DNA of 64,000 nucleotides from contig CM102290.1 in the NCBI GenBank assembly GCA_046563655.1, positions 4,092,001-4,156,000 of the forward strand, written 5' to 3'. The notes beneath the pieces were generated by a model that had not been told where the DNA came from, searched no databases, and was given only the letters and a program-made list of their open reading frames with translations. This document shows, one piece after another, positions 4,254-53,300 of the stretch. The stretch comes from Yuukianura sp. NJ FZ-2021 (lineage: Eukaryota). Both the position numbers and the translations under genes were made by a program. Numbering within the stretch: position 1 is the first letter of the stretch; every line of letters begins with the position of its first letter.

Positions 4254-7200
4254 AGCGAACGCTGCTCACCTCCACAACGCCAAAGAGTCTAATTGGACGA
4301 CCAAACTTGAACACGCCGTGGCTCAGCCCCTCCAATTCCAATGACGAGGCCAAAGGTGGTGGAACTTCTGGAAGTGGAGCCACTCGTGACCTCGACAGTA
4401 GTTCAGGGTCTCAGCACATTTTTCCGTCGAGGGGCAACGAGTCCTCTTCCAGTTCCTATGGACAAAACAACTACGGCTTTCCAGGAAGAGACTTTGACGT
4501 TTCGCCTGTTGTGACCATCACCTCTTCGTCGTCCCTGCCAACAACAATGGGAACACAGACTCCTACTGCCAGTACGAAAGCCGTCCGAAATGATTTTCTG
4601 TCCCCAGTGGATCCTGACAAGGATCATCGGAGCGGCCAACACTCGGAGACGAGAGTCTATGACAATGATGAGGATGACTTTTCAAAGAGCAGCGATATGG
4701 ATTCGGATATTACGGACTCCTCTTATCGAGATTGGATGGAGCGGGAGCGTGGAGGGGGAGATGGAGACAGATTTAATATGGACGTCAAATGGCCAGACAG
4801 GACAGGAGAAAGTGAAGTCACGGTCAGAACGCCGTTGTTCCCCACGCCACCTCCACCTCCGCCGCCGGCTGAGTCGCTGGACGAAGATGCTGAGAGGCGG
4901 AGAGTTCGGCCAGCTCCAGGTAATTCCGTTCCCATGGTCATCCCTGCCACTTATTTCTATATTTGTATTATTTGGAAGAGGCATGAGTCAGCGTTGATCA
5001 AAAACATCTCGAATCCTGTCATGTCAAGACTTTCTTCTTGGAATGTGCATTTAGAGTAAATGGCTCAAGGAGCTCCCAGTCCTTAGCAACGGATAATTCT
5101 TTGCTTTTGGGAAAATGTTCTTTTGGAGAGGAAAAATTGAACAAGGTTTGAGTAGTAGGTTACGTAAGCTTTCTTTGTAGGTTGACAATATCGCTCCGAG
5201 CCCCTTCTTGACTAGCTGTCACTTATTCAGCCTTATTTCTCCCTGCTCTTCTTCCAACTTTTTCCTTATTTTTTCTTCTTTTCTTCTATCGTATCAATTT
5301 TTCCTTCCGTCATATCCTCTCTTCCTCACTCCACTCAATTTGATTTCATTTCTATCTTCATAATATTCTTTTAGGCTTCATTGCTAGCGGAAATTGAAAC
5401 TCCAATATTTTTTTCCTCTTGCCATTTTAATTTGATTTTGAGGAAGGAGAAAGTAGAGGAAGAGCAGAGAGGAAAGCTCTTACTTAAAATAATTTTTAAA
5501 ATGACTCTTTTTTTTCTTGTCGCTGATTCTCATTTTTCTTATGAAAATTTAGGCCGGGCTGCCACTACCAAAGATTTTTGTTCATCCAAACTAAACCGTG
5601 GAATGTTTTGGAACTGGACGGGAGTTGGACTTACGGCGAAACAACCTTGTCCTGGAGGTGCTTCCGGTGTGGCCAAATGGAAATGCATTGAAAGTGGTCC
5701 AAGTAATGTTGCTACTTGGTTTCCGGATTCACCTGATCTCAGTGACTGCAAGTCTGCTTGGCTGGGAAGTCTTCAGGTAAATTTAATTGGTTGTTTAAAT
5801 CATTAAATCTAATTGAATTTGTAGTTTAACCTGAAAAGTATTTGAGGCAACTCCTCTGGTAGGATTTAAGTCATCACGAGGACGACCGCAAAGTGTCAAG
5901 TTTATTGATTTGCACCATTTTATTTTGGATGGGTTCAGAGAATAGAGAATGAGTCAGGAAATTAGTAGATTTTTTCTAAATTTAGTCTGTCGTTTTTTGG
6001 GACCCGACCTAATTCTGTCTCAAAATTGTACACAAGCTGTTATTCAAGTGAAAGTTGTTCATTGGGATTTACAGGGAGAGAAGAGTGAAGCAGTTGGTTC
6101 CTAGTGACTCCTTAGCAGTAAATTCGCCTGCTAGGAGTCATCTGTTTTCTGTTTCTGTCTCCTAAGAATATTTGAATTTTAGGAGGAAAGCCAGATCTCC
6201 TTAATTTACGACTTGTTTGTTTTCTCCCAATCATAATCATTCCCTGGTTCAGGGAAATTAATAATAATAATTGGAGACAACGCCTCCGCACAAGCGACAA
6301 GGACGACCCGCTTCCATTTTTCAGTTTTTTCAAATTTTTAAAAAGATGAAGTTAAGCTTGGTACTAACTAATACTAGGGCACATGCGACATGTGTCGATG
6401 GAATGGATCGCCTCCAGACCTCATTTCTCTTTCTGTTTTGTGTGTTGCACAGTCGAGAGTGTTGGATCCGGAACAAATTCCAACTGTTCTAGCGGGTGAA
6501 TTGGCACAAGTTACGAATAATACGAAGCCAATGTACGGTGGTGACATTGCTGCCTCTGTCAAGATCATGAGAACGCTGGCTTCCAGAAAGAACGAAGAGT
6601 TGAGGACCCTGACGAGCCAAGTGAGCCGAGAGGATTTGGCTGCCGAGCTACTTCAGTTGATTCTGGATGCTGGAAGTAATCTTCTGGAGAAGACCAAGTT
6701 GGATCCATGGAGAGATCTAAGCTATGCTGATAAAATGGCAAACGCTACAGGTCTCCTTGTAGGTAGGTGCCTTACGCCATACTATGCAGCGCAATCCAGT
6801 AATGATAGTATATTAATCATATATTTTACTATATATTTATTATTATACATTTTAGGGCTCGAAGACAATGCCTTTCTTCTTGCCAATGTCATCTCATCCG
6901 AAAAGATCCTACGGAAGTCTGCAAAAAATATCTGTGAGGAAATGGACTTTCATTTTTCTTTTTTTTCTCAGTTTTGTTAATCCTATTTCGCTTCTTCCGT
7001 CTGCAAGTGGAAAAGAATTGAGGGAAAGTTTTTTTTTTGAAAAAGAAAATCATATAGTCTCTGTCGAGCATGTCCAGAAACTAATCTTTTCCCTCCGTTT
7101 TTTTACTTGGACAGTGACAACGATTTATGCAATTGAAGCCAGCAATGTCCAAGAAATTAATTTTCCATCTGAATCCATGGATCAGTGGGGCCGATTAAGT

Positions 7201-10200
7201 GATGTTCTAACGATGCCAGCGGAAGCTCTTCGAGAAAACAGTGACGGAGGACTCGTTAGACTTGTTTGTTTTGCTTACAACAACTTGGAACATGTAAGTT
7301 TTTCCTTCTTCTTTTACGAACTTGCTTATTATTTTAAAAAATGTGGAATCCAAAGTTTACATCGTCAGCCACTTCCTTTTCCATCCCCTTCTCCTTTGAA
7401 CTTTTAGAAATCATTTATCGATCTCTTCTTTTCTTGTCTAAAATTTCCGTGTCTGCTCCTTTCATTGATTTGTAGCTTCTTTTTTGTTCTCTCATCTTTA
7501 AGCATTTGTGTAATGAAGTGGCTCTATATTTATTATTAGGGAAATGGAACATAAATCTCCGAGAAAGAAAGGGAAAGAAAATAATGCTTCAAGTTTGTTC
7601 TCTCTCCACTTCTTTTTCTCATCCTTTGTCCTCACTTTTTCTATTAGTTTTTAAAGAAACGATGTCTTACAGGTATAAGTTGTAGTTTTCATAACAATGC
7701 TGCCAAAGTGCTTACTTTTTTTTAGGAGAAAAATGGCCGTTCTAAGTAGAAGGAAATAGTTTTAGCGCCAAGATTTTAGTTTTCTTCCGTTCCCTGTTGC
7801 CTTCCTTCCCTGTGATGACGATTTTGCACTTTGTGCTTTACTAATTGAATCTCGAGAAATAGCTACAAAACAAAGCCATTTTAGTCTTAACGCCCTCAGC
7901 AGCGTTCCTTCCAAGCCCCTGTAGAATAATTTAATTCTAAATTGAATTTGTGTGTTGAAGGTGTTGCAACCAATTGAGTCAGCGGAGATGCTGGAGGATG
8001 AAGAAAAGGAAAAGTCAGTTCGGAAGCGAGTCAACTCCCGCGTCATTTCAGCGTCCCTCAATCAGGGAAGACACATTCAATTAGCACTTCCCGTTCATCT
8101 CACGTTGCGTCACTTGTGGCTGGACAACGTGAGCAATCCACAGTGCGTATTTTGGGACTATACACTCAAGTAAGTACTTGTCACAAGAGGACTCTTAAAA
8201 TCTACAAAACCTTCTGAGAGCAGTTCCGAACCACTTTTGTGTCCAATTAAAGAATGTGACAATGACACTTATAAATTAAGGGAGGGAGACCTATTCCCAA
8301 GAACCAAATCTATTAAAATCCTAAGTTCAGGTTTGGTAGACGATTTCACAGTGTTTCACAGTGAGGAAATGACTTGGGGACAACTTTTCACCATTCCAAA
8401 GCCCTGCCCTCATCATTCGTCAGTGTCAGTTGTTAGAGTATGTGATACTGATTAGAGATCTCTATGATCTGATTAAAGAAGAAAGTGGGATGGTCATTGT
8501 CATTCTCACTGTTGTGGTGGATACTTTAGCAAAGGACAACGTCCCATTGTTTTTCTGAGAATTTCTTCAACTTTACTATAAGTATTCTGCTTGTTACTTT
8601 CAGCGCTTGGTCAGAAGAGGGATGTCGAGTTGTGAGAACGAATAGGACGCACACGGAATGCCAGTGTACACATCTCACGAACTTTGCCATACTCATGGAC
8701 CTTGCACCACCCGCAAAAGATGTAGCGTCAGTACAACTGCTCCAGGTATGTATAAATGTCAGTTTAGACGCAATTCTTGAAAAGAAGGTTTTGGACAATT
8801 CAACAATGGATTTTGTAGTGGAGACGGCTGGCATTTTGCCGACAGAGGAGGCTTACATAATAACGTGACGGCCACCCACCCAATGTCATCTCAAAGTATT
8901 CGCCTCCATAATTCGTAAGAGTCCAACAAAGACTTGAGCGAATTGCGAAATACTTGTAGTTCACGTTCGTTCATAAGGAGAGCGTATCAATTGACGGAAT
9001 CTTGGTTGTTATAAATCACCTGGATCTGAGTCGTGAAAGGGAGATGAGCTACAGATACGGATCAGAGGGTGAAACTTGGTTTACATGTCATCCTTGACCT
9101 TGTGTGACCCCTCTACTCTGCCATTATTCGCCAACCAATGATATTTTGGTAAATAAATAAAGCAGAAGATTCGTATCTGTATATCTGTCCCTCGTAAGTC
9201 ACCCCCGGAGTAGACCCATTTCGGAATATGATAAAAACATAAAGACAAAGAGGAAAGACGGCTGAAAGCGTTTTTGGTGTCTTACCAAAGTCATTTCCCT
9301 AATGGATATTTCTCCTTTTGTTTTCTGCAGGTTGTCATGTACGTTGCGTCTGCTGTTGTGATTCTGTGCCTTGTCTTCACATTGATCATCACTCATTTCT
9401 GTATACATGGCAAAGTAAGTTCCGGTTTTCTGTCTTTGACATTACAGTTTCTTCTTAGAGCGTTCCTTTGACGAGGAGCCACATTAGGGAGACCTATCCG
9501 TCAAGTACTGGTGTCAACCAGGAGGCAGTTCCGTTTTCTAAACTTAAACCTTGAGTCACCACTCTTTCTCATTATGATCTTTGATTTTGTGGGTATTAAG
9601 ACACAAGACTTGACTCCAGTACGTTTTCCATCAAATGAAATGGAGTGTGCATTCTGGTTGAAAAAAGAGAAAGCTGATGAAGAGAACTGAAGATGAGAAG
9701 GAGTTGGGCCTAAGTGTCGTTTTTGAAGAGTGATTGAAATCCTATTCATGGAATCATATCCTCTGATTCCGAAGTTCCTTTGATGTTTACTAATTGGGGA
9801 AAAGGGAGGGAGGGAAAGTAGGATTTTGGCATTGTTCCAATGGGAGTTTCACTTTCCCCGTCGACAGTAAGGGCTGGAAGAGAGAAGTTAAAGGTTATAT
9901 GCGTCGAGTAGTTGTATGGAAAGGAGACAGTTTTTGGAAGGGCCATTTAGAAAGTATGTTCTTTTTAGACTACGCAGAAATGAGATGGAGTACCGTATTT
10001 TCTCGCAGATAAGCCGCGGCTTATCTGTGAAATTTCAGAAAATTTGGAATGAGGGAATTTTTTTTTTTTGGAAATTCGTGAAAAAGCATTTTTAATAATG
10101 TGTGAAAGTGTTTTGAGGCCATCTAAGACTACACTAAACGCCCTAAAAAGTTCCAGTTTTTCGGACCAGTCTTCTGGAAGTGGTTGTCCAACCGAAGTTC

Positions 10201-13200
10201 TGCATCGAATCGAAAAGTTATTTCGTTTCATGAATTTTTCGTACCACCCATCGCTGGCAGAAAAGTCGGGTATTCCTTTGATTTGGGCCAAAACTTTTGC
10301 ATGGAGCCTGAAATCAAAATTTCAAAAAATTCCCGTCAGACTTATGTAAACAAACACTCATTGTTCAATTTCAAATTTTTTGTCACCTGACCGCAGTCCC
10401 AGTCACTCGCGCTTTCGCGTCCCGCTTGTCACGAATCCATTTGTTCAATTCACGTTCCAATTCAGGCCATTTTGGTATCCCTCTACGTAACGACCGTCGT
10501 TTTTTCTTCATTTTTGTCAATGCGAGTTCCATTTTTCTCCAAGCTCGGACACTGCGTTCGTTGATCGAAAACTCACGAGCAGCCTTACGGTTGCCAATCA
10601 CTGCAGCTCTTTGACAAACCAGAAGCTTGAACTCAGCAGTGTACGAATTTCGTCGCAACTTTGGCTTAGGATCCATGGTCAAAACGATTATAAATAATGT
10701 AAATGGTTGGTTAGACTTTAAAACAAAGTTAAGGGTTGTTGAACATAAATATGTGGGTTCAAACTCGTGTTTTTCCCGCTCTCATATCTATATGTGGTTT
10801 TGAGACTGCGGCTTATGCGCGAGAGCGGCTTATCTGCGAGAAAATACGGTAGTAAAAGTTACTGTTAGTTAATCTTCTTAGAAGAGAGAAAGATTGTCCT
10901 TTGAAGGAAACGGGATGCTCAATAGGTTAGGACGTTTCTGGGCAACAAGACCAAGACCTCCTTCCTTCCTTTAGACGTTTTCAACTCCACGAAAAGAAAA
11001 GTAACTAAACTTTACCATAGTCATGGCTCCTACACAGTTCTAGTGATTATTTTTTTCTTCGGTTTTTTCTTCTGGAGAACCGCAAGAGAAAGTTGGAAGG
11101 GAGAGTACTTTTGGGTGGAGCGGAGATCAGAGTCTTTTTTTTTCGTTTTCTTTTTTCTAGGATCGTTTTTTAAGGTTGATCGTTTTTTGTGTGCTCTTAA
11201 GCTTTCTTCTTGTTGAAGGAGTTAGGACGGAAGTGTGCCCTCTTCGTCCTTTCTTCGTTTCCTACGTTACAATTACCTTCCCCATTTTCTACTTCTAGTT
11301 TACTCTACGTTTTTTTTTTTGGATTCGGAAAATGGTCTAAAGTAAAAGTGAAAATTTTGTAAGACTATACAGAAATTCGTAACAAGAAGAAAAGCAAACC
11401 AATGGTGGAGCCGAAAAGACGATGCTGACACACGCCTTTTGAAAACTTAATTGCATGTTAGGCTTTTGCAAAAGTTGAATGAGAACGGGACTTTCTCTTT
11501 GAAACTGAAAAGTTGCGAAAATACATTTATGTCTTGAAAAAATTGTTTCATAAGTGGATCATTAACCACGTGAATTGTTAAGCTTACAATATTTCAATTT
11601 TTCTTTGTAGGTTTTCCAGACAATGATTCTAAAGAACTTATTCCTGTGTATGCTCATTGTGGAAGTTATATTTCTATTTGGAATTACGAAGACGGAGAAG
11701 CCATGGGTCTGCACTTCAATTGCTCTGATTGAACATTACTTTGCACTGGCTTCGATTCTTTGGCTATTTCTTCATGGTAAGTCCTCACTTTAACTTGCCA
11801 GAGACCGGGCACAAAAACTTACTTTGAAGAAAGAAAGATTTAATTCCCTCTTCCTTCTTAGGCTCCTTTTCTTCATCGGTTTTAGTTAACTTTTTTTTTC
11901 AGTAGCGAACTTTTTATATTACATGTTCTCTGAGGTCTTTTTTTTCTTCTGCTGAAGAAATCTTAGAATTTTCCAATTCTGCCTTCAAACCACTCTACTC
12001 CGAGTTGACTTTCTTCTTAGAAGTAGAAGAAAGAGAAAGTTAAATCCATGCCTCTCGTAAATCAACTCCCTTGGCATCAGGGCTATGACGATCGACATGG
12101 ACTTGACATCCTCCTCTAACTCCATTCCTTTAGTCCTCAGCTTCTTATATAACTTCTGGAAGTTCAAGTTTTTTTTTAGTTTTTCTAAAACCCAAAATTC
12201 TATAAATGATATAAAACTGAAATGAGCTGAAAAGTCTTTCTCTGCCCAGCACAACTTTTTCCCTAGAAAACTTTTTCTCATTTTCTTTTCTTTGTTTTAA
12301 GGTTTCCATCTGCATTTGATTGTTGTGGAGGCAGCGGAGAGTGGTCTTTCTCGTCAACTGTGGTACTATGGCGTCTCCTATGGGTCTCCCCTCATTGTCG
12401 TCCTTCTGTCCTTTCTACTGGATCCACGAGGCTACCGAAGTGAAAACTACTGCTGGATCCAAACTAGTTTTGGAATTTTGTGCTTCGTTGGACCAGCCAT
12501 TGTTGTGGCCCTTGTAAGTTTGCAACAACATGACACAGTTCCGTATCTTTTAAGCTCCCCCGCTTCTTTAAGCGTCCTCCCTCAGTTTTGTAGCATACTT
12601 TCTCCAAGTTATGTTTTGTGACTGTCTTTCCTATGTGTGATGAATAATGTGGCAGGATTGTTTCTAACATGAAGACTGTTTGGGAAAAGGAAGTTAGAGA
12701 GGCTTTCGTGTTCCTGTACTTTAACTAGATTAATACAGAGGAGTGGTTGGTTGGTTGTCTACTACAACCTGGAAGCTTTTTCTGGACAACTTGGAAAACC
12801 ACCGCTGCCCCAAAACTTGAGGTGGAACTAGCAGGGAAAGGTTCTTCTTTTTTTTGGTTGAATTCTATTACCTTGTAAATGTGGAGCAGAGGAGATTGGG
12901 CAGAAGGAAGTAAAGGGAAAGAGTATTAAGTATAGTTCTCATTTTTTACTCCCTTTGTTTTGTCGTAAAGGGTTTAATGGGGCAGGAAAGAGAAAGTAGG
13001 GAGAAAGTAAACCCTCGACTCAAACTGGGCACGTCACACCCCATAATAGGTTCTAGTCCAAGCTTTTTGGGGACGCACGGAATGAATATTATTATTCTCC
13101 GAAGCACTTTTTGGAATGTAACCACCACTGCCCAGTCCCGCTCTTTTTAAATTTTGTGAAGTAGTGGTTACAATGTGGTGGACAGCCTGGACAACCACTT

Positions 13201-16010: not shown

Positions 16011-17345
16011 GTACCTTTTTAAAATTTCTAAAAATACTCCATATTTTTGTGAATTCAGGAGTGAAGAGTTTACCTCTCTATCACCTTCCGTTCCCAAGAT
16101 ATGAATTTTTAAAGTTTTTGAACAAGGTAAATAGAATACTACTAGGTAGTGCGAATGGAAAGTTTGTTTGGTTGCCATGTGGAAAAAAAAATGACGTCAC
16201 CCGCTGAAAATACCGGAATTCTGCCAATTATTGGTGGTGTCCCATAGAAACCCCTAAGACGCATCTTGTTTACATAAATGCCAGCGGGTTCCAATTTCAC
16301 GATTACGGTATTTTTCAGCTGGTGACGTCACAAACAAAAAATTGCGTTGGTTGCTATGGGCGCCATTTGCAGGGGGCTGGTTTTTGAAAATTAAAACAAA
16401 ATTTTGAAAATTTATATCTCGGCAACGGAAAGCGTTAGAGACCAAATCTCTTCGCGAAAAAGTTTCAACAAATATGAAGAATTTTTAGAAATATTGAAAA
16501 CTCCAAAATGGAACATCAAGTTTTTCGTCAAATTTTGAAAAAAACCATGGACTATAGTCCATGGTTTTTTGTGAAATTTGGTCAAAATCTGAGGGTACCT
16601 TTTTAAAATTTCTAAAAATACTACATATTTTTGTGAATTCAGGAGTGAAGAGTTTACCTCTCTATCACCTTCCGTTCCCGAGTTATGAATTTTCAAAGTT
16701 TTTGAAAATTAAAATGAAATTATGAAAATTTATATCTCGTAAACGGAAAGCGATAGAGACCTAATCTCTTCGCGAGAAACTTTCAAAAAACATGAAGAAT
16801 TTTTAGAAATTTTGAAAACTCCAAAATGGAACATCAAGTTTTTCGTCAAATTTTGAAAAAAACCATGGACTATAGTCCATGGATTTTTTCGAAATTTCGT
16901 CAAAATCTGAGGGTACCTTTTTAAAATTTCTAAAAATACTCCATATTTTTGTGAATTCAGGAGTGAAGAGTTTACCTTTCTATCGCTTTCCGTTCCCGAG
17001 ATATGAATTTTTAAAGTTTTTGAAAGTTAAAATAAAACTTTGAAAATTTATATCTCGGCAACGGAAAGCGTTAGAGACCTAATCTCTTCGCCAGAAACTT
17101 TCAACAAATATGAAGAATTTTTAGAAATTTTGAAAACTCCAAAATGGAACATCAAGTTTTTCGTCAAATTTTGAAAAAAACCATGGACTATTATAGTCCA
17201 TGGTTTTTTGTGAAATTTCGTCAAAATCTGAGGGTACCTTTTTAAAATTTCTTAAAATACTACATATTTTTGTGAATTCAGGAGCGAAGAGTTTACCTCT
17301 CTATCGCTTTCCGTTCCCGAGTTATGAATTTTCAAAAAAAAAAAA
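16011..17345. repeat. Tandem array of ~318 bp internally palindromic units (about 3 full units plus partial copies), probably transposon-derived
   Basis: CCATGGACTATAGTCCATGG at 16545 and 16863, and at 17181 with a 3 nt insertion; period 318. Each unit also holds two ~100 bp segments that are imperfect reverse complements. Partial copy at 16011-16122 and degenerate copy near 17747-17821. Confidence 0.9.
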
Positions 17346-17585: not shown

Positions 17586-17632
17586 GAGCATAGAGATTCG
17601 GTTTGGAAATTCCAAACCGAATCTCTATGCTC
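17586..17632. repeat. Perfect palindrome, 23 bp arms with 1 nt spacer
   Basis: GAGCATAGAGATTCGGTTTGGAA-A-TTCCAAACCGAATCTCTATGCTC. Confidence 0.95.
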
Positions 17633-18153
17633 TTCAAAACACACCAAAGACGCCGCAGTTTTGGGAAATCCAGGCGCTGCAAATACTACAAAATAACGCA
17701 AAACAAAACGAATTTCTGAACACGCTCAAACTCCAAAGTACAAGACCTCCAAAAGCGAACATCAAGCTTGTCGTCATTTAAAAAAAAGAAAACTGTGGAC
17801 TTTGAAAAATTAAACAGTCCAACATTTTTAAAATCCTCGGATACGTAGTACGAGAGAGGTGATCTCGTGGTTTTTGAAATCAGGATTTACGGCAGTATTT
17901 TTGCAAGTACGTTAAGATTGCTTACGTTAATTTTAAAAGGTCATAAAATGAATAAAAGTTTCCCACGTATTTTAGAAAAATAACTGTGAACCCTTCCCAA
18001 AATGAAGTTTTGTCTTTCTTTTGTCTTTGGAAAATTTAATTTAGAAAAACATAATATGAAAAAGATATAAACTAAACTAAGAATGAATTAATTCGTAACA
18101 ACAAAAAGGAATAATGCTGTGTAGTCAATCGCCTGATGTTGGAAATCTACAAT

Positions 18154-19821
18154 CTACATATTCTCGTCTTCCTCTTGGATCATGGTTAGCACCTTGCCAC
18201 GCTTTCGCGCTTCGTTCAAATTTAGCTTCCCAAGTCTTTCGGATACATCTGGCGAAGTTGCCCGACCTTTGCGCGGGACAGACTCCATACTGTCGCCAAA
18301 ATCGTCTTCCTCGAAGCCAAGTTGGGCTTCAGAACCTGCTGCTGCTTCCTCTTCCATTCGTGACTCCATACGAAATTTCATGATGTCCATTTTCTGAAAA
18401 AAAAAGGTGATATATGTGAAAGAAAAAATAATTTGTTCCGCTCTATCCTAAACAGATCGATTCTAAACAGTAAATCGGTTAAGTAACGGCTATTCGTAAC
18501 TTCGTCAGTAGTCCGCAAATCGGTAGGTTGATTGATTAATTAGTTGCGTTACCTTTTGGGACGTTCCCGGTTTAATTTTGAAATTCTGAAGGGCATGACA
18601 ACTTGCTCCCATACTAACTTTATCCAACTCAACTTCGGTTTCCGTGAGAGCCTCAAAGACCATTTTGGCTGCAATGCGTTGTGCGATGTAGCGACTGTCG
18701 CTTTTCCCTGAAATTGATAGAATTGATTTGGATGAGTAAAATACTTCAGCATGATACGTACTAGTACATAAGGTAAGAAGATTTAATGCATACAAAAATT
18801 TGACTAACGCCAGCAGTCCCATATTTAGGTTGCAAGAGGTTTATTGTGCCATGCTTCCTGACGAATATTATCGGCGAAACTTAAGGCACGTTACAAATTA
18901 ACATTAGTTTAGGTTATGGCGTTACTCACCAATCCGAATCAGTTGGCCAACTTGACACTTGAACATAAAAAGTTCCGTCATTTCCTCTTCAGGGTCAATC
19001 GCCAGTTGGATGTACATAGGAGCGCACAGATTCAAAACCGAACAGAGTTCCAGTAAATCTCCGAAGATTGATGGGTTGATTCTTCCGCCTGGAACCATCC
19101 CGTAAAGTGGAACCTCAAATCCGCCACTCTCTACTTTCAAGAGCAGGTCAAACGCAGCAATTTGGAGAGCCAATCGACGTCTGGGAGCCTCTCCACGACC
19201 TGCGAAACAGGAAAGTAGTTAGATCAAAATTACGCTACTAAATAAACATTAACTTAAGGTTCTCGTTAAGGAAATCGAACACCCATACGAACTATTGCAG
19301 TATTTTGTGAACCGATATAAGTTGAACTCGTAGGGTGTAGTAGGCTTCGTGATCAAGCGTTGGTTGTTGACCGCTACATATATACCGCTACCGCATTCGG
19401 GGCTTTTACTGTAAGTTCCCAAGAAGAATTGCTCGGAAGAACACTTACTTCATCTGACAAGCTAGGTTGCCCTAATCGATCGGCATCCGGAGACGTTGCA
19501 GTTATTAGCTCTTCCGGATCCGGCCTGGTACCTTTTATCATTAGCGAGCTCTACCCGGTTTACTTCCAGAGCCAATCGCAATTTGACCTATCAGTATATA
19601 AAATGCCTACCCCTGATTCTCCCCGTATACATCTCGATCTGATGAATAACGCAGCTTGGCGAAACATGAATCTCATGGCACTCCATATGAAGTGGAGTAC
19701 CGTATTCCTTGGCGACCTCTCGTAGAACCACTAGCGGGGTTCTGATAGATCCATCGTCACAAAGTAGTCTTCCCCGATTCTTACTGTATGCGGCCTCCAA
19801 TGCTTGAATGGCGTCAGTCAT
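18154..19821 (-). CDS. Divergent two-dsRBD protein (TRBP/PACT/Loquacious/R2D2-like layout), ~291 aa; exons 19821-19611, 19199-18930, 18707-18553, 18393-18154
   Basis: Spliced product has dsRBD1 TPLVVLREVAKEYGTPLHMECHEIHVSPSCVIHQIEMYTGRIRGRGEAPRRRLALQIAAFDLLLKV and dsRBD2 IFGDLLELCSVLNLCAPMYIQL...FMFKCQVGQLIRIGKSDSRYIAQRIAAKMVFEAL, then an acidic tail. All three introns are GT-AG with compatible phases (1,1,0). Confidence 0.75.
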
Positions 19822-21603: not shown

Positions 21604-24607
<3,004 letters not shown>

Positions 24608-27600
24608 TTTGGAAAACAATTTCCGTCTTGGCTTCCTATTAATTCAAGAACATAAAACATATATTAATACATTTAGCATATTTTCAGAATTTCCCCTGTA
24701 ATCCCCACTGTATGACAACCACAATACGTTAATGGTGTCAGTCAATTCCATATTTTTAGTTTTCGTCGTAAATCATTTTTGACAAATTAGCAGATCATTA
24801 AAACTGCCACTGGCACCCCTCAGTGTTCGATCCTCTGTTTTTAATCCTTAACTTCATGCCCAATGCTAGCAGCGAGCTAGTATTGTTAAAAGTTTGACCT
24901 ACTAACTTAGTTTATTCGCCGAAACTCCTTGAAGATATTTGACACGGCCAATGTCAAGGTGATCGTGAGAAAGAGAGCGCTCTTAAGGGCAAGCGACACG
25001 ACCACATACGAAGTGAGAACCAATTATCGATTCTCAAGTCAAAGTTCACTGATTACTACTAAGGAATACCATCTGACAATAACTTGCGTCAGAGTTTAAT
25101 ATGATTTACTGGTATTATCATGTATACTATGTATCGCAAAATCACCTGGATCCTGGATGTTCTGTTCGTCGATTATTACCACCAAATAATATACCGTTGA
25201 GACTAAATGTATTTTGTACCAATGATATCAGCGCAAAAGGAGGTAATTGATTGATTGAACTAAAAAAAAACGTAACAACGTACTTAGAAAATGAAGATCT
25301 TTACGAGTCTGAGCCAAAAGCAAAGTGCTTTTCCCATACCCATTCCCACGTAAAAAAATTGCGAGAGTTATCACCTTTTTTCAACCATTCCGGCTCTACT
25401 CCTCTGCTGAAGTTGTATTTTCGTGTCTCAAATATCCAGGAACAGTAAGGTGCTCGTCACGACTTGTGTATTCGGCTTTAAATGTTAATAAATTGATTAA
25501 TTTAGTTAATGTTGAAACGAAGTTTATCACCAAATCTCTAATGATTTCACGGTTTAATTTAAATCGGTTTGCGACAGAAGTATAAACGCCAAGTATTCCG
25601 ATGAATGTTTGCCGCAATGTTTAGTTTCAAGTCGGTTGAAGATTGGACATCACGATTTGTACATCGTAGAACTACGATGCGATCTAGTTTATCTTTATGC
25701 TCAGGATTACTAAACCAAAGTACGGAAGATTACTAAAGTAGCGGAATTTTCAGTCAACGAATGGTACTGGTAAGTACTGGTAAGAAACTAGAAACCACTA
25801 GTGAGTTGTTAGATTGACAATTTGTCAAGCAATTGGGACACAATGGATAATTTGTTCAGTTTGTTTACATTTTTGAACTTTGTTAAACATGTTCTGGGAA
25901 ACGTTGTAGCAATTTGAAATGTCATTTTCAAGGTCACAGTTTACAATGTAGGTCGAAAAGAACAATGTGACGACTGACGACGCTAAAACAGACACGTACG
26001 CCTAGGTTTACATTTTTCCCATTATTTTTATCCATCCATCCTCAATCAAACTTAAAGTGTAATTAATTAAAGTTTTGTTTAAGGTTTAAATGTGACTGAT
26101 CTCTTAATGAGACTTGCTACACATTAAAAATTAATAGGTTACAGCCTAGAGGTCATGCGTATAAAATACACATTAAGCATTAAGCAAGACTAAAAACGGC
26201 CTAATCCCCTATTAAATAATTTTCTTTAGGCGTTAAATAAGTTGGAACATTATAACGCCAATTGGGTGTGTCATGCGCGGGTACATGCCGATGTTCCTTG
26301 CGGTTTAAACTTCCAAAAATATTTAAAACTTTTATTATAATGTAAATAATTTCAAATCATATCACATTCAAGCAGGCAATAAAACATTAATTTCCAGATG
26401 TTAATCCTATTTCGAACTGATTGGTACACATTTTCCTGTTTTGATATTTTTAAATAACCGAGCCAAGCAAATTATTTCCCATAGTTTCCATATTTTTCGA
26501 AAATGTTTGCAAAATGTTCAATGTCTGAACAGTAAAAACGTTAAGAAAGCATTCAAAAAAACCTTTCTCTTGTGCCCTGAACTTTAGAGAAACCTTAGCG
26601 TCGCTGGATTTGGCCTCACTCAAGGTCAAGACTCAACAGAACCATTGTTCCACTCCTCGACACCGTAAGAAAACGTTAAAATGCCGTGAATCTTTACTAA
26701 TTGTAAGCATTTTGTACAGAATTAGCATCAGCATTAATCAACTATTGAATGACTTACGTGTCTTGTTCAGGCTTGATCTCATCAATGACCGGAAGACGAG
26801 AGGTCGTTCGTGGAAGTCCTTGCTTGACCCCACTAGTAGAAGAAAAACCGCGACGAAAGAAACTGACGTCTTGTCGCCGTGTTACGAAAGAAGCTACGCC
26901 AAAGTCAATAGGAACTTGTCTTGCGACAGCATTCATCGTAAAATAGTCCTTGAAGAATTTCAGTAGTTTAGATCCCACTGCAAGTTCAAATCACAATCTT
27001 TGTTCAATCATTTCAAAATGAAACGAGGTCACTTCAGGATTTATGGGTCATTAGGTATATGTCAACGACTTTCGCATTGTTAACACACACTTCTAATAAA
27101 TGTGCCCTTAGATTTTTAAACTGAAAAAACTAAGAAGGGACTTAAGTGGGGTTCAAACTGCGGAAGCTGAGGAGCAGCAATGCAAAATAGAAGTGACAGG
27201 AGATTCGGAACATGACAATTGGAAACTAAACAGTGTCAATTTTAATGTTTGTAACAATGCATGGAGTGACTAATGCTTTTTCTTACAACCCAACAATGCC
27301 TGCTTTTCCCTGTGACTAATTACCATTTCTGGAACTCTCCATTAAAATCATCAAAACAAACGGCTAAAAACATGTTTTAATTTGATTGAAGTACTTTAGG
27401 TTTAAGTACCCTGTTTATTTTTCTTCAAAAGTTTTCTAGTAGTTCCCAGACAATTATTAATTATACTTCACAAGAACCTCTTTATATTAGGAATTTTGAG
27501 TAGTACTTCAGTTTAACTGTTATCGGGGAATTTATAACTTCATTGCCATTGTGTTACCCTACGCTTTGTCCTCAGTCCACAGTGACCGCGGTTTAGCGGC

Positions 27601-29960: not shown

Positions 29961-31177
29961 ATGGGGTCAAGCCTTAGCCGTTTCGACTACAACCTTCCGC
30001 AGGAGGTAGCGTTATAATTGAAATGGATTCAGATTTATATGTACAAATACGAAATTATTTTTTTCTGTTACACAGTTTAATTGGCTGTCTTCAAATACAG
30101 ATGCATTTAACCCTTGCTTTGCCTTGCCGCTATGATTATTAACTCATTTTTTACTCTCTAATTCTAGTTGATCGAGGAGCTCCTGAAGTATTTGTCGCCA
30201 AGTGATCTCCTTAAATGTCGCTTGGTTTGTCACGATTGGAACGAACAAGCGTTGTTAACTGCATATCCAAAAGTAGTCTTCAATGTCGATTTCTCACAAG
30301 GTGATTCCAGAACCCTACTTGACGACAATACTGCTGGTAAATGGACGCAGTTCAAATTCATACGTTGCCAAGGACAGGAAATGTTTGGAAATCCCGGATT
30401 ATTTTGGGTGTCATTTCACAATCGTATAACGTCTCTAGAGTTTTACAGATCTCAGATATATCTAGGTGCCACCAGAGACAATTCGGAGCAGGGCTATGTA
30501 AGATGCAAAAATTCGGAAATTAAGTTAGCATTGAATTAATTTTTAATTCGTTTATTTCCCAGGAAATACTTTGTCCGAACCTGAGGAAGCTGTCAGTAGT
30601 AAATTGCGACGACTATTTCCGCGACTTCGGTAGTAGATTCGCACTGCAAGATACCTTTCAAGTTGGTGGCTTAGATACCCTGAACATTTCAGACAATTCA
30701 TATCTAACAGACAGAATCGTTCTCGGAATGCTTTTACGAACAAGAAATCTCAGATCGCTAAATTTAGCCAATACTCGCATCCAATTTTGTGATGTTATTT
30801 ACAAAAGATTTTATCCATTAGGTAAGTCATACTCATATCACTAACTATCAGTAACTGTTAATGTTAACGGCTTCGTACTATTACATTTAGGAAAGAATAG
30901 CCCGACGGAAGCGTCACTTTTAGACGAATTCAGCGACTACGTGTATACTTTTGAAGCTCTTAGAGCGGTATACTTTGATACCTCGAAGGCACAGAACTTG
31001 AAGGAATTAGTTTTTGATAACACAGAACTTTCGGGGTCAGCATTAATGAAGATCTTTGGAACAAAATTTATGCGGCTGGAGTCATTCTCTATGGTGGGAT
31101 GTAATGAAATCAAAGACGACTACGTAACTTATATTCGCAATATGTTTCCGTCAATTACAATCTTTAGAACTGAATAG
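29961..31177 (+). CDS. F-box/leucine-rich repeat protein, ~306 aa; exons 29961-30005, 30168-30497, 30563-30821, 30891-31177
   Basis: F-box LPQELIEELLKYLSPSDLLKCRLVCHDW, then LRR-like segments (CPNLRKLSVVNC, LDTLNISDNSYLTD, NLRSLNLANT, LESFSMVGCNEIKD). Exon phases are consistent. Confidence 0.85.
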
Positions 31178-45755: not shown

Positions 45756-48700
45756 TCAGTGGTAAACTTCTGGTTCCAAGTTGAATAACTCCATGCTGAC
45801 ATTTGTCCAATGGATACCAGAACGTTGAAAAACTAGAGACCATACATATGGAACGAAGAATGCTTCTGGAGAATCCTCTTCCACATACCGAAACTTTAGC
45901 TCTGGAAATTTCTGGAACATTAACAAGTCATTCTTAAAACAAGGTTCTACAATCTTAGTGAATTGAATCTCACATTACCCACCTTTAATATGTCTGGCTT
46001 CCAGTGAAGGAATCCATCTTGGAGAACGTCCATAACTTGACCAGCACTGTAACTATGATAGTCTTCTCCAAGTCGTTTTGTAAAGTAGGCTATCACCTAA
46101 ACAGAAATCAGGTTCATTAGTACAAATGGAATCCGTGCATGGTTTCTAATTTCAAGTCGTTTCACATTGCCCCATTTCAGAGATCGTAAATTGGTTGGTT
46201 CCATAACCGAAACGGCACAAACAGAAAATTTACCGCGTCTAAATTAGCGACTAGATCCTGCGTTGCTTCGTGTGTTCGGAACGGTTCGAGCGTATCTTTT
46301 TTGTAGAGCAGTGTGTACACCAAATGTCGATTTTGAGCAAGTTGATGACTGAGAGTAGAATTCAAAATCTCTAGGACCATCCGTACCACCTCTTCTAATA
46401 CTGCTATGTCTTGAGCCTGAAATAATTCGTATTCCAAAATGTTAGAAACTAGCATCAAAAGTTCAACATTCAATTGAGATGACTGATTTACTAACCAGCT
46501 CTGGTTCCGCCGTTTCATTGGGCTTCGTTTCGCTAACGCGTTGTAGTAGTTTCATATACCGTTTCCCGAGTGTCTCGAAGAGGCTGATAAGTCGTTGGGC
46601 GACATAGGGGTGCAAGGAATGGAATTTGGAGGACATATTAGCCAATGACGCCAGACAGTTGGTGTGGAGATACTTGTCCTGCGTGAGTAAAAAGAACTTG
46701 TCGCATTAGAATGCACTAGTCGCTCTAGAAGTTACTATTAAAAAGTAATAAATAAATTTTTAATAGAAATTACCCGCATCTTCAGAATGTTGTACTGGAT
46801 AGTTCGAATGATAACAAGGATCATGAGGCCACCTAATGAAATGTCTCCTACGTTCCGTTCGGTGTACCATTGTATATTTTTGAGAGACTATAACATGAGA
46901 AACACATTACTTTGTATTAGCATTGATAATGGATTTAGGGGCAAGGTGAGACTTACAATCTCATGAATTTGGTGGTTGAACAGTTCTTCTTCGCTCAAGA
47001 TAAGAAGAATAATAAGCGTCATGTAGATGTGGTGTGTTGAGTTAGTCGGAGCGTTGTACAAAGTTTGGATCATTGGTAGAATCTAGAAAACAATCGAAAC
47101 GAGTTTTTTTGTATGCTCAAGAATTCTTTTTCAAAATAGATTTCTGAAACTCATGATTATCAGAGAGCTCCTAGAACACTTTACTTTGTATTTTGGGTGT
47201 GTTAAAACGTTTTTTATGATTAGCCCTAGTACCAGTGTCTCGATGTCGGACCGAGCCATGATATAAGACATGAACTCCACATTCTCAAAGGTAAGCAAGT
47301 ACAGTAGAAGCGTCGACTCATCTGTATTTATGTGTCTACAAATCGTCCCGTAAAGCCTCGCGAAACTGACTCTGAACGTTGCGTGGCGGACACCAGGGAG
47401 AAGCTCAGTGTCGTCAATAGGATCTGGAATATCAAATCAGAGTGTATGGTGAGCTTAGGCTGTACAATGAACTCATGTTTGTGTATAAGCCGATATGGAT
47501 GAAGCATAATGTCTAACTTACCCCCAGTTTCATTTGCACAAAAAGTGATAGCTGCCCGGTATGGATTAACAAAGCCGTCACTTGGACCATGTCGAGTACA
47601 GTGATTGACAAGTATAAGAAGTAAGTTGAGAGACTGTTTTGCCAAACTGTGCTCTTGAAGACCTTCCATGATCTCATCACTGTACGGAGCCAAACCAACG
47701 CCCTTTCGAAGAATGTTCCAAATTCCACCTGCACCACAATCATAGTAAACCACTCTTTAAATAACAACGTTTTTGTGGAATGTAGTCGTAAAAGTATCGG
47801 CAATTACTAGCAACCCCGATAACTATACTTCCTGAGCCCTCATTGTTCCAACATGGATAAGGTGGATCAAGTTGCTCAATGTAGTGAGACAGCAACTTTC
47901 TTGTTAAGGCAATACATGCACTTGGGGCAACACCCTGCATCAGGTATCTAAAAAAAAACATATTACCCCGTTCATCCACTAATTTCAAATGTTTATGTCA
48001 AAAATTTACCTAAAAGACGGCAGCTTTATAGCCGGTTTGGCTGGGACGAACATTTGTTGCGATAAGACAACGATCAGCGTATTGACAGCTTCCAAGTGAA
48101 GCATGTACGTGATATTAGTGACTGGAAGATCCGTCGTGAGGACAACTAACGAATCCATCAATAGCTCAACAGGATCGGAAGGCTCCGATAGTGGAAAAGC
48201 TTCAGATGCCTTTACTGAAGTTTAACGTCAAAATTCCGGCGGCAATAGGTTTAGATTAACTGAAATATTGAAATTACCTGATCGTTCCAACTGCTTTGTG
48301 CATTCTTCATCAGACAGACTTGAATAAAAACATTTCAGAATGCTCCGTATCATGAATAAAGCATTGTAAGCTTGCCAGATAAAAATATTACTGAAAAAAT
48401 ACAACCCAAATTAGATTTTACGCTAATGCACACCAACTTTATAAAGTCGATGACTGTCGCCAAGATCTTACTCAGAAGTTTGAACAGAGATTTGGAGTTC
48501 TTTTGCCCTGGCAGCAAAAACTTCGATAAGTGATATAACGTTTCTTGTATTAAGATTGTTCTGGATTAGATTTGTTCGTAGTTTCTCTAGTGTCGTGTCA
48601 AGGAGAAAATCGTCATCCCTAAAGCAGAAAACGATAAGAATTTGAAACATGAAATCAATCGCTTTTTAGCTGATTGCTACTTGTTGTAGTCGTTTACCGA

Positions 48701-48837
48701 ACAAGTACCGGTTTGACGGAATGTGAAAATAGTTTGTTCCAGATAGGATCCAATGGTGACAGTGCTTCTTCTCCGCAGAATCTCTCCAAGTATTCATTGG
48801 TTTCCAGCGCCTTAAGTGAACTGGCTTCTAGGCCCAT
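45756..48837 (-). CDS. DYM: Dymeclin (multi-exon)
   Basis: MGLEASS...[97 protein letters not shown]. Confidence 0.96.
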
Positions 48838-50374
48838 GGTGTTCCAAAGTTTTCCAGAGCCAAAGCTTGTAATGTCAAAGAGCTTAACCTTGCCAGCTCT
48901 AGGGTCCGGTGCTTTGCCAGTCTTGAACGGTATCTTCATTTTTAAAAAGAGGAATAAAAATGATAAATAGGTTATTGAACTCACGTTGAAGCACTGACGA
49001 TTGACGTCTACAGTTTCTGACAAAATTAACAGGGAGAACGAAGCGTAAATTGATATCATAAGCACCTTCGCAACAAATTCGTATTCAACCCTAACCATGA
49101 CAACCTTCTAACTCCAATCATTTCAAAAAGGCTCAATTTTCCGTTAATTCCAATAAAATGGAAAGTTATTTAAAATAATTCGCAATTACAAAAATGTGTT
49201 TACATAAATGTATTTAAAAATAATTATAAACATTAAAGTATCACTCACCGACGGCTTATTGCCCACAAAATTTCATCAGTGAAGAAAATGAAAGACTTGG
49301 TGTCGATACTAATTCAAACGTAATGCACCTTCAGTTTAAACCTAACCGTTACTCAAAAGTTTAGCCTAGCCAGTAAGTACTCAAAGTTCAACTTTAGTTC
49401 CTAACCTTACGAGACCTCTGTATTATGTATTTAGTCTGTCGCTCCGAAACCAACTTTAAACACAGCGAAGTAATCAATTAATTTCTCGATTTCGATGCGT
49501 AGGGAAAGTGCACCGCACACAATATGCTCATTTTTGAGAATTATTGACATTTGATATTTCTTCCACTTATTTTGCTGGAACTTCATTTCCCGCCGTGTGT
49601 CGTGTCAAACTTATTCCGATGAGACATTCAACATCCACAATTTTACCAGGCGAAGCCAGTATTTCTGAAGTTTAAGTTAAATCGGCGATTTTAATGGTTT
49701 CACTTTCAGGTCAAATGCTATTCATTTTTTTTTTTGACGTATGACATGACCCGTTTATGTTGGAAGTTTGGGTGCACTTGAAAACTAGTAGCACTTGCAA
49801 AAGTGCTCGACTTTTGCATGCATTACGATACATAAAATACAACATATTTTTGTCAGAATCCAAATCGGTAACGCCCAAGGATTAACATTATATTTATGGC
49901 TTTATCTTCCACTTCAACGATTACTGGAATTGGTAACAGTTGGTATTTCGGTTACCTATTGGTATTGCACGTTAGAAAGAAGTAAATTGGCGAAAACTCG
50001 CCTGTCTGCGTATCCATGTTTGTGACGCTTATACCGTTTGTTTATTTGGACCCGACACCCGAGTGATTCCGAGTTAAACGCGGATGAATTGACTTTCCTC
50101 ATTTCCCTCCTTGGGATTTTTAACTTGAGCAAAGAGGAGCAGAGCTAAGCGCGCTTTCCACTGTGAGAGGCCTCTTTTATTTTGGAAAGTTCTTTCTAGC
50201 ATCGCATCATCTGAGTGATCTGATTATTCGTTTGTTTAGTTACTAAACTCATTCCTCATGGAATTGTCAACATCTTAAACAGGAGAACGTTTGTGAATTG
50301 TGATTCAAAAGTAATTCCAGATAAAGGTCATCTAAAGCACAGAAGTTCCCAAAGGTCAGCTAGCAAGCAGCAGC

Positions 50375-53300
50375 ATGAGTACTGGAAATGCACAGGGAGT
50401 CGGGGTCGGAGGAGTACCAATACAACAACCCTATGGTGCCTCAGCTGTTTCGGGTGGTCAGCGGTTCAGTTCGGATCAAATCACTACTATCACACATAGT
50501 GGGCTGTCTGCCGGTAGTTCGTTACAACCGATTGGTCCTGTGGGGTCTAATACCATGCAGTATCAACCTGGACAGATAGTGCATAAGGTAAATCAGACCA
50601 CATCACAAGTTTTAATCGTTGATGAAGTACAGTGACTAATCAAGTTTCCTTTGGTCAGGGTGCACAACCACACTTCATTGCCGTGACTAGCAGCAGAACC
50701 CGGATGCCGCTACAGAAGGATGACATGAAACAAGTCGATCAAGAAGAGCAGCCAATGGAATCATCTGGTCCATCTTCTATGCCGGTCGGCTCTGATGTTG
50801 GTTCCGGTGATGCATCCTCAAGCGGCGGATCACAGACGGAGGTAAGTATCTTTCTTCATTTTAACTCAATGTTTAAAATGTTTACTGCAAAAAATACTTT
50901 TAGCAACGACTGAAAGTGGAGGATGCGTTAAATTATCTGGATCAAGTCAAATACAAGTTTGGAAATCAGCCTCAAGTGTACAATGATTTTTTGGATATCA
51001 TGAAGGAGTTCAAGTCCCAGAGGTTCGTCGTATTTTAACTAACTTATAGCTTCTAAAATGGAATTGTTAAGCTGATAGTTGCCATCCTTATTTTCAGTAT
51101 TGATACTCCTGGAGTAATTGCACGAGTGTCACAACTCTTTCGCGGTCATCCCGAGCTGATTGTTGGATTCAATACATTTTTGCCTCCCGGATACAAAATC
51201 GAGATTCAGGCAAACGACTCGGTAAGTTGCTCCAGTTTGGTTTCTTGAGATTATTTTTATGTATGTTTTTAAGTAAGATCATGTCTTTTCATTGCCAATT
51301 TTCTTTCAGATTTCCCTGAGTATGATTGGGCAAGGAGGTGGCTATGTGGTTACTACTGTCCAACCCGGGTTGCCAGGACCTGGTGGCCATCCTTCAACTC
51401 AGAGTACGGTTATTCATCAACATACAAGCGTACCTGTGCCACCACCAGCTCGTCCTACTATTTCCAAGTAAGTAATACGTAACTTAACCGAAAATAAACA
51501 AAATTACTACTTTGTTGATCTTTATTTATGATTCTGTGTTCAAAACAGTCTTGCCCCCAGTGCTGTGACAAGGTTGTCACCTATTCCTCCGCCACTTCCA
51601 GCTGTCGCTACCAATGTCAACACTGCCGGCACCTCTGCTTTTACCCATTCCTTTACTTCTCCATTTGTTCAATCTGCATTTCCCAGTTTACAGACACAAC
51701 CAGTTGAATTCAACCATGCGATCAATTACGTTAATAAAATCAAGGTACGTGAACAATTATTTGTTGCCGATTAAAAAGGAAACAACGAGTGGCGGAACCG
51801 AATAGAGAACGTAGCTGATAACCTAATCCTTTTATGCTAGAATCGATTCCAAGGACATCCGGATAAATACAAGCAATTTCTTGAAATATTGCACACCTAT
51901 CAAAAGGAACAACGAAACATCAAAGATGGACAGCCGCCTTCCAACAAGCACCTTACGGAACACGAAGTCTATTCGCAAGTCGCAAAGTTGTTCGAAAATC
52001 AGGAAGATCTTTTAAAGGAGTTCGGACAGTTTTTGCCTGATGCCACTAATCATCAAAATACGGTGAGTGTAGAGACATCATATTATCAGAAGATTGATCT
52101 TTTGTTTTATTTGTTTCCGTTTACACTCTATATTTTAGAGCGCAATCGATCAGGCGAAAAAGAGCGTAAAGATGAGTAGAGACAGAGAGTTTGTGACTAC
52201 TCAGCCGACTAATGTGGGTAACCTGCCGCAAAAACGTCCAGCGCTGCAGCCTTCTGGAGCCCAAGACAGAAAGAAGCCAAAGGAAATGGCGAACGTTCAT
52301 TATGGCAAGCACGTCAGTCTAGTTGAGGCCGCCCGTTATGGAACATTGAACGATTTTGCGTTCTTTGACAAGGTAAGATCCATATCATTTACTCGTATTT
52401 GGATATGATATAGCATTCGCTAGATATTCTGTATACTTTAATTGTTTATTTCCATAGGTCCGTGTTATGATGAAATCGCCAGCAATTTACAACAATTTCC
52501 TCAGATGCGTGAATCTATTTTCTGATCAATTGTTTTCCGCCAATGAACTGCTAACGCTGGTGAATCCCTTCTTGGCGAAAAGCCCTGAGCTCCACAACTG
52601 GTTTAAGGAGTTTATTGGAGTGAAGCCTGAATCTGCATCTGGCTACTATGACATGGGGCATCCTGCTGCAGTTAAGTCAACTGAGAAACTTACCGAAGAG
52701 CAAATGGTTGAAATTGGTAATTTTATTTAAATAACATGCGTTGATTGTGATCAATCGGTATTAAACGTTGTTTTTATATTTCCAGATTATACAACATGCA
52801 AAAGGTTAGGAGCAAGCTACTGCGCAATGCCCAGCAACAATCTGCCACCTAAGTGCAGTGGGCGGAGTCTTCTACCTCTGTGCAGTGAAGTGCTCAACGA
52901 TGTTTGGGTTTCGTTTCCGTCTTGGTCTGAAGACCCGTCGTTTTCAAATTCCAGGAAAACAACGTTTGAAGAGTGTATGTACCGAGTAGAAGATGAACGG
53001 TTCGAGGTTAGTCTCTTTTATTTACAAGTTCTACACAACTACATCCCACATCCAATGTGTATTTGTTTCAGTTGGATGTCGTTATTGAAACAAACGCGGC
53101 GGTAATAAGGGCTTTGGAGTTTGTTGCCAAGAAAATGGCACGCATGAGCCCAGAGGAGTTGGCAGACTTTGAGCTGGATGACTGCCTTGGTGGTACGTCG
53201 CAGACAATACATCAACGAGCAATCAGACGAATTTATGGTGAGAAAGCAGCTGAAATTATTGAGGGATTAAAGAAACAACCAGTGACTGCCATTCCACTGG

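Follow-up and report, generated by a model that had tools for sequence, protein, structure and literature searches.

Domains that bind double-stranded RNA (dsRBDs) canonically engage RNA through three regions, namely a Glu in helix alpha-1, a GPxH motif in loop 2 and a KKxAK motif at the start of helix alpha-2, and the so-called type-B dsRBDs keep only the C-terminal part of this consensus (both as given in the available portion of PMC11309768). Proteins that carry such domains in tandem set the specificity of Dicer: TRBP, PACT and Loquacious (Loqs) combine a dsRBD1-dsRBD2 pair with a third, Dicer-binding dsRBD, and R2D2, the tandem dsRBD partner of Dicer-2 in Drosophila, is reported in the excerpted text of PMC5521735 to be absent from wingless hexapods, Ixodes and Daphnia. 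Both dsRBDs of Aedes Loqs2 are canonical and descend from Loqs dsRBD1, with an origin about 31 million years ago, and the protein occurs in one mosquito subgenus only, as far as the accessible part of PMC10809485 describes it. Here we describe a gene on the minus strand (18154-19821) of a 64,000-nucleotide stretch of Yuukianura sp. NJ FZ-2021 (GenBank assembly GCA_046563655.1, contig CM102290.1, positions 4,092,001 to 4,156,000), which is referred to below as the window. Its four exons join into an 876-nucleotide (nt) frame of 291 codons plus a stop, with no internal stops, and the predicted product has two tandem, degenerate dsRBDs. Judged by its sequence, the gene belongs to a conserved, unnamed and uncharacterised arthropod family of tandem dsRBD proteins, which is a variant of a well-known kind of protein. 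The original prediction, made from the letters of the window alone, is partly confirmed and was essentially right in what it observed, and its interpretation is partly supported.

The joined gene and its family

A stop codon lies in frame eight codons upstream of the ATG without any AG between the two, and we therefore take Met1 as the start. The reading frame is intact, as are its start and stop codons and the six splice signals, and the acceptors of all three introns are pyrimidine-rich. Exon 2 alone retrieved a 297-residue library relative (P0005) at 70% identity. The joined 291-residue translation, henceforth the window protein, matches P0005 all the way from Met1 to its C-terminus at 63% identity (181 of 289 aligned columns), ungapped through residue 212 and with gaps at none of the three exon junctions. 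The contigs recorded for P0005 are at most 1388 nt long, and an uninterrupted 297-codon frame on a contig of this size suggests that it is a transcript.

An ortholog with 159 of 290 residues identical to the window protein is encoded on a metagenome contig (L001, 2584 nt). Its introns are likewise GT-AG and measure 105, 111 and 104 nt, as against 411, 222 and 159 nt in the window gene; all three are common to the two genes in position and phase, exons 1-3 are equal in length, and both this ortholog and P0005 begin at the same Met. Given the open frame, the GT-AG introns, the ungapped junctions in the comparison with P0005 and the same introns in L001, the earlier joining of four open-reading-frame (ORF) fragments into a protein of 291 residues stands. 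Boundaries at residues 71 or 161 also appear in nine further library proteins, all of them fragments: the match ends at residue 71 in P0014, P0018 and P0020, begins at residue 71 in P0009, P0015, P0021, P0026 and P0027, and begins at residue 161 in P0024.

In the codon comparison of the window gene with L001, the differing proportion of synonymous sites is 0.835, and since these differences are saturated no ratio of nonsynonymous to synonymous rates (dN/dS) is given. The nonsynonymous proportion of 0.318 lies far below it, which indicates, at the level of the sequence, that the protein is constrained by purifying selection. By region, the nonsynonymous proportion is 0.121 in the linker between the two domains, 0.238 in dsRBD 1 and 0.293 in dsRBD 2, and reaches 0.366 in the extension that follows dsRBD 2, 0.376 in the N-terminal helix and 0.404 in the tail. 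The gene had been cast as a fast-evolving, lineage-specific paralog, and neither half of this description is supported. The first is at odds with the excess of synonymous over nonsynonymous differences, and the second with orthologs that retain the same exon structure at 55-63% identity, within a family of 21 clusters, 10 full-length and 11 fragmentary, one of them from a springtail.

These clusters, formed at 50% identity, come from a search with P0005 of a library of 1.84 billion representatives, which yields 26 proteins at an expectation value (E) <= 1e-3, 16 of them at <= 1e-10 and five at <= 1e-30. Along the same architecture align 21 of the 26, P0005 included (10 full-length, 11 fragments), and another four (P0019, P0025, P0028 and P0029) are canonical multi-dsRBD proteins. 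Against a profile of ten relatives from which P0005 was left out, the window protein scores 229.6 bits over residues 1-289 (E 5.6e-63 for a library of 1.8e9), a full-length match to the unnamed arthropod tandem-dsRBD family as represented by its wide alignment (A2). This score, together with the end-to-end alignment with P0005, shows that the joined frame is not a product of chance; a reading of the fragments as chance ORFs was likewise rejected on the ortholog and constraint evidence. The sole member with a named source is P0030, from the springtail Allacma fusca, recorded as 'unnamed protein product' and 'Uncharacterized protein', and word-based protein searches returned this protein and P0005 only. 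A metagenome scan with P0005 gave no confirmed relatives, a scan with the closer family alignment (A3) gave L001, and none of 76 pattern matches in viral contigs was confirmed. The protein atlas returned dsRBD-type clusters only, the best of them (0.91) an automatically named 'tarbp2 family' of Arthropoda, and a search of its unnamed clusters found nothing above 0.81. Within the window the dsRBD gene is single-copy. In its sequence features, the locus has every appearance of an intact, selectively constrained, four-exon animal protein-coding gene in a genome of arthropod type.

Fold, contact motifs and origin of the two domains

The Pfam dsrm model (PF00035) matches P0005 in two stretches at 28.8 bits, above its gathering cut-off of 23, and among 10 other full-length members three score above the cut-off, three score below it and four have no match; the family sits at Pfam's limit of detection. 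The model that AlphaFold computes for P0005 with the family alignment has a mean predicted local distance difference test score (pLDDT) of 74 and a predicted template-modelling score (pTM) of 0.64. It contains an N-terminal helix (residues 2-19), two alpha-beta-beta-beta-alpha units (29-94 and 115-182) and a further helix (211-227). Seventeen of the 20 ten-residue blocks in residues 1-200 average a pLDDT of at least 85; in the stretch from 41 to 140, which includes the linker, nine of ten blocks average 85-96 and one 74; and residues 226-297 fall below 50. The dsRBD fold is thus found twice in P0005, with matches to dsRBD structures at Z scores of 9-11, and the two tandem dsRBD-shaped domains of the original prediction are upheld by profile as well as by structure. 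Neither in P0005 nor in the 10 other full-length members does Pfam report a third dsrm stretch, and the tail is modelled at low confidence, in agreement with the earlier view that an acidic tail takes the place of a third dsRBD.

Structural and profile comparisons converge on the same set of proteins. The top Foldseek matches of the P0005 model are TARBP2 in its complex with Dicer (8.9e-10), TRBP dsRBD1-2 on small interfering RNA (siRNA), Loqs-PB and R2D2. In VIA-align both domains superpose together on Loqs-PB with Z 11.4 and a root-mean-square deviation (rmsd) of 3.6 Å over 139 residues, on R2D2 with Z 10.8 and 3.4 Å over 136 residues, and on TRBP with siRNA with Z 10.3 and 4.2 Å over 143 residues; dsRBD 2 by itself matches dsRBDs of TRBP, Loqs, R2D2 and Staufen at Z 10-11. 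When the family profile is compared with solved chains, the E-values are 8.1e-9 for Staufen1 dsRBD3-4, 1.9e-7 for RDE-4, 2.9e-7 for TARBP2, 1.3e-4 for Loqs and 2.3e-4 for R2D2, and the matches to Staufen1, RDE-4 and R2D2 are single collinear stretches reaching across both domains. The Dicer-partner-like layout that had been proposed is supported, because fold and sequence matches agree on it. Exon 3 on its own matched no dsRBD or R2D2 chain, and a profile covering the extension together with helix alpha-2 of domain 2 matched neither R2D2 nor any other dsRBD chain at E <= 10.

The rewritten contact motifs singled out in the original prediction are all present in the window protein (RRRLAL at 77-82, SRYIAQ at 165-170 and DPEEE at 139-143), and it was also right that GPxH is missing and that the canonical contacts are degenerate. 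In place of KKxAK, domain 1 has R-R-L-A-L and domain 2 has R-Y-I-A-Q, which leaves two of the three basic positions in the former and one of three in the latter. Across the 12 aligned sequences on which all motif counts here are based, the Glu of helix alpha-1, present in both domains of the window protein, is found in three sequences in each domain, and no family member has GPxH in either domain. A basic residue occupies the first KKxAK position of domain 1 in 11 sequences, the second in eight and the third in four (R, R and L in the window protein). In domain 2, where loop 2 is acidic, the first two positions are both non-basic in nine sequences, and the third is Lys or Arg in 10 and Gln in the window protein and P0005. 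The net charge of the window protein is +2 over domain 1, -3 over domain 2 and -6 over the tail. With the Glu in both domains, GPxH in neither and KKxAK reduced, the domains fall outside the definition of a canonical type A dsRBD. Both retain mainly the C-terminal third of the consensus and in this follow the 'type B' pattern. Here they resemble PKR dsRBD2 and the third dsRBD of XlrbpA, for which the available portion of PMC11309768 describes conservation as mostly C-terminal. However, unlike those examples, both family domains are of type B, with no type-A domain alongside.

Conservation in the family is unusually high in three places: the linker, the beginning of domain 2's helix alpha-1, and the extension of about 30 residues after domain 2. 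The nine residues that are invariant in the wide alignment (G24, P29, G71, G73, A85, D88, C123, A169 and G194) are all present in the window protein. Three cysteines are also invariant or nearly so throughout the family: Cys123 in helix alpha-1 of domain 2, Cys152 in its strand beta-2 and Cys197 in the extension.

The original prediction further held that each domain is split by a phase-1 intron at the equivalent Gly codon and saw in this a sign of internal duplication. A profile-profile comparison of domain 1 with domain 2 gives a probability of 91% (E 9.8e-7) at 16% identity, and the alignment, ungapped from the beta2-beta3 turn to helix alpha-2, places Gly161 opposite Gly73, not Gly71; in the P0005 model, Gly71 stands seven residues before alpha-2 and Gly161 five. 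Introns 1 and 2 thus have phase and strand beta-3 in common and are offset by two codons, and the claimed equivalence of the split codons fails. For the statement that every dsRBD of ADAR1 is interrupted by an intron at one and the same site, a literature search found no paper, and we do not use it as evidence. In fish and human PKR genes two exons code for each dsRBD, according to the consulted part of PMC2291453, and the accessible part of PMC10809485 places an intron in dsRBD1 of Aedes loqs and in each domain of loqs2. Since each PKR dsRBD, so described, is also made of two exons, a split dsRBD is not special to the window gene. Taking together the offset introns, the split dsRBDs elsewhere, the 16% identity and the collinear tandem matches to Staufen1, RDE-4 and R2D2, the sequence evidence is better read as a two-domain layout that was inherited than as a recent internal duplication.

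Relation to described proteins and likely role

In comparison with TRBP, PACT and Loqs, the family has the same tandem dsRBD1-dsRBD2 layout and finds among them its best Foldseek and VIA-align matches, along with profile matches to TARBP2 and Loqs. It differs in having no third, Dicer-binding dsRBD, either by Pfam or in the model, in the absence of GPxH and of most of KKxAK from both domains, and in possessing an extra N-terminal helix and the conserved extension after domain 2. Its linker, moreover, is short and highly conserved and that of Loqs is longer, with 161 model residues set against a 189-residue span in Loqs-PB. Staufen1 dsRBD3-4 and RDE-4 give the best profile E-values, and their collinear matches take in part of domain 1, the linker and domain 2; however, their domains carry the canonical basic motif, their proteins are larger and have more domains, and aligning Staufen1 requires an insertion of 16 residues in the linker. 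With Loqs2 of Aedes the family has in common a small size, two dsRBDs with no third and, going by what PMC10809485 describes in part for Ae. aegypti, an intron inside each dsRBD. Unlike Loqs2, the family has degenerate domains with just 16% identity between the two, and it reaches a springtail. An origin of the Loqs2 type, with both dsRBDs as recent copies of Loqs dsRBD1, does not fit this low identity or a Loqs match that does not stand out from the others.

We posit that the likeliest role of the window protein is that of an adaptor associated with duplex RNA, whose canonical contacts have been weakened. To this reading as a whole, that is, a constrained gene of an unnamed tandem-dsRBD family whose product is an adaptor with a weak or non-canonical association with duplex RNA, we assign a probability of roughly 60%. 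Going by the model, the two domains would form a pre-organised pair, arranged as those of TRBP, Loqs and R2D2 are when bound to an RNA duplex. The adaptor would most likely associate weakly or non-canonically with duplex RNA, and would most likely recruit or regulate a partner through the conserved extension and the motifs of the tail. The most probable setting would be a small-RNA or double-stranded RNA (dsRNA) pathway.

Several points weigh against this reading. The fold evidence rests on P0005, the 63%-identical ortholog, and on profiles, rather than on the joined protein of the window; just four of 11 full-length members reach the dsrm cut-off, and four of 11 have no match at E <= 0.1; and none of the four exon pieces of the window, taken singly, has a Pfam match. 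That the modelled domains are arranged as if on a duplex may be a carry-over from the solved complexes of TRBP, Loqs and R2D2. With most basic contacts gone and loop 2 of domain 2 acidic, the sequence argues against an ordinary affinity for dsRNA. Nothing observed here, furthermore, links the family to Dicer or Argonaute.

Some of this evidence bears equally on the possibility, which we consider rather unlikely, that the protein is purely a protein-protein scaffold, in which both type-B dsRBDs no longer bind RNA and instead serve for binding of a partner or for self-association, in the manner of dsRBD3 of TRBP and Loqs or dsRBD5 of Staufen. The absence of GPxH from both domains, the loss of the first two KKxAK basics in domain 2 of most members next to an acidic loop 2, and the scarcity of the helix alpha-1 Glu in each domain would all be expected of such a scaffold. 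Domain 2 also resembles protein-binding dsRBDs, namely Loqs dsRBD3 (4x8w, Z 10.6), Staufen dsRBD5 (5cff, Z 9.4) and TRBP dsRBD3 at its interface with Dicer (4wyq, Z 10.2). However, basic residues persist at the first and second KKxAK positions of domain 1 (11/12 and 8/12) and at the third position of domain 2 (10/12), and the modelled pair superposes on RNA-bound TRBP, Loqs-PB and R2D2. A homodimer prediction for residues 1-230 of P0005 scored 0.00 and speaks neither for nor against self-association.

Less probable still is that the family stands in for R2D2 as a much diverged counterpart, loading siRNA duplexes as a two-dsRBD partner of Dicer-2 in arthropods that have yielded no R2D2 of their own. 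The layout is alike: about 300 residues, two dsRBDs joined by a short linker, and a C-terminal part that is non-canonical. The superposition covers spans of near-equal length (residues 28-183 of the model on 5-163 of the R2D2 chain), the lowest single-domain rmsd values, 1.6 and 1.7 Å, are those to the R2D2 domains, and the profile match is a single stretch of 157 residues. The reported absence of R2D2 from wingless hexapods, as given in the excerpted text of PMC5521735, and the presence of one family member in a springtail would suit such a counterpart. On the other hand, the sequence relation is weak, with R2D2 outscored by Staufen1, RDE-4 and TARBP2; the profile that runs from helix alpha-2 of domain 2 through the extension finds no R2D2 match; the tail is modelled as disordered and not as a folded C-terminal domain; and a canonical R2D2 may coexist with the window gene. 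A related idea, which we regard as equally speculative and improbable, is that the family constitutes an unrecognised Dicer-partner-like class, in which a rigid pair of degenerate dsRBDs might act as an R2D2-type cofactor for siRNA loading or dsRNA sensing, or as a regulator or decoy, in those lineages, such as springtails, where R2D2 is reported missing.

That the gene, as a paralog of a canonical dsRBD gene, is decaying or drifting neutrally on its way to becoming a pseudogene, as its degenerate contact motifs and the lack of Pfam matches to its separate exon pieces might suggest, is scarcely credible and was rejected on the ortholog and constraint evidence, given that frame, start, stop and splice signals are intact, that L001 keeps the exon structure with three exons of identical length, that nonsynonymous differences are far below synonymous ones, and that the degenerate pattern and the nine invariant residues are common to the family.

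As reported in PMC5521735, R2D2 is missing outside the winged insects. A conserved family of R2D2-like layout that Pfam can barely detect is a candidate for a missing cofactor or regulator, and it also offers a natural test of how a dsRBD pair functions once its canonical RNA contacts are lost. Should the family prove to be nothing more than a structural adaptor with no relation to small RNAs, the result is an ordinary gene annotation.

Gene layout and surroundings

Table 1. Positions of the parts of the tandem-dsRBD gene, of its ortholog on contig L001 (numbered along that contig) and of other features of the window.
Feature	Position	Strand	Details
Exon 1	19821-19611	-	211 nt; start codon 19821-19819; residues 1-70 and first base of Gly71; N-terminal helix, then alpha1-beta1-beta2 and part of beta3 of dsRBD 1
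Intron 1	19200..19610	-	411 nt; GT-AG; phase 1 in the Gly71 codon (strand beta3, dsRBD 1)
Exon 2	18930..19199	-	270 nt; residues 71-161, codon shared at both ends; helix alpha2 of dsRBD 1, conserved linker, alpha1 to beta3 of dsRBD 2
Intron 2	18708..18929	-	222 nt; GT-AG; phase 1 in the Gly161 codon (strand beta3, dsRBD 2)
Exon 3	18553..18707	-	155 nt; residues 161-212; helix alpha2 of dsRBD 2 and conserved C-terminal extension with invariant Gly194 and nearly invariant Cys197
Intron 3	18394..18552	-	159 nt; GT-AG; phase 0 after Lys212
Exon 4	18154..18393	-	240 nt including stop codon 18156-18154; residues 213-291; helix, then acidic tail (net charge -6, low-confidence in model) with two conserved motifs, one short acidic and one hydrophobic-basic
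dsRBD 1	19123..19740	-	residues 28-96, spans intron 1; Pfam dsrm on P0005 residues 40-92; model elements H29-39, E44-52, E58-66, E69-75, H78-94
dsRBD 2	18637..19089	-	residues 108-184, spans intron 2; model elements H115-125, E132-136, E148-154, E157-163, H166-182
Possible polyadenylation signal	18035..18040	-	ATTAAA, 114 nt after the stop codon; pattern match only
Ortholog on contig L001	898-2117	+	exons of 211, 270, 155 and 264 nt
Adhesion-type receptor gene	5375-8868	+	exons with HRM, GAIN and GPS
Transposon-like ORF pieces	9965-10781	-	Tc5 transposase DNA-binding and Brinker DNA-binding domains
Tandem array	16011-17337		units of ~320 nt
Palindrome	17586-17632		47 nt
ORF piece	24293-24643	-	protein-kinase-start-like by eye
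F-box protein exons	30168-30539	+	
Dymeclin exons	46177-49107	-	
Sin3-type co-repressor exons	51841-56274	+	PAH, Sin3_corepress, Sin3a_C
tRNA-Ile	60315-60407	+	93 nt, anticodon AAT; ARAGORN
ALG10 glucosyltransferase exons	60967-61896	+	226.8 bits

The neighbourhood of the gene is one of ordinary animal genes. The exons with HRM, GAIN and GPS domains indicate a gene for an adhesion-type G-protein-coupled receptor, latrophilin-like by its domain set, and further exons encode Dymeclin, an F-box protein, a Sin3-type co-repressor and the ALG10 glucosyltransferase. The isoleucine transfer RNA called by ARAGORN lies between ORFs that resemble ALG10 exons; as Rfam at its gathering score has no match anywhere in the window, this call is doubtful, or the gene holds an intron. 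The ORF piece listed as protein-kinase-start-like ends in a glycine-rich loop followed by Val-Lys and has no Pfam match at E <= 0.001. The two ORF pieces with Tc5 transposase and Brinker DNA-binding domains are, to judge from these domains, probably a remnant of a pogo/Tc5-type transposon. About 0.8 kb beyond the 3' end of the dsRBD gene lies the tandem array, whose copies are 93-95% identical and match one another in reverse orientation too, at about 72%. Between this array and the gene stands the near-perfect palindrome, which matches its own reverse complement at 97.9%.

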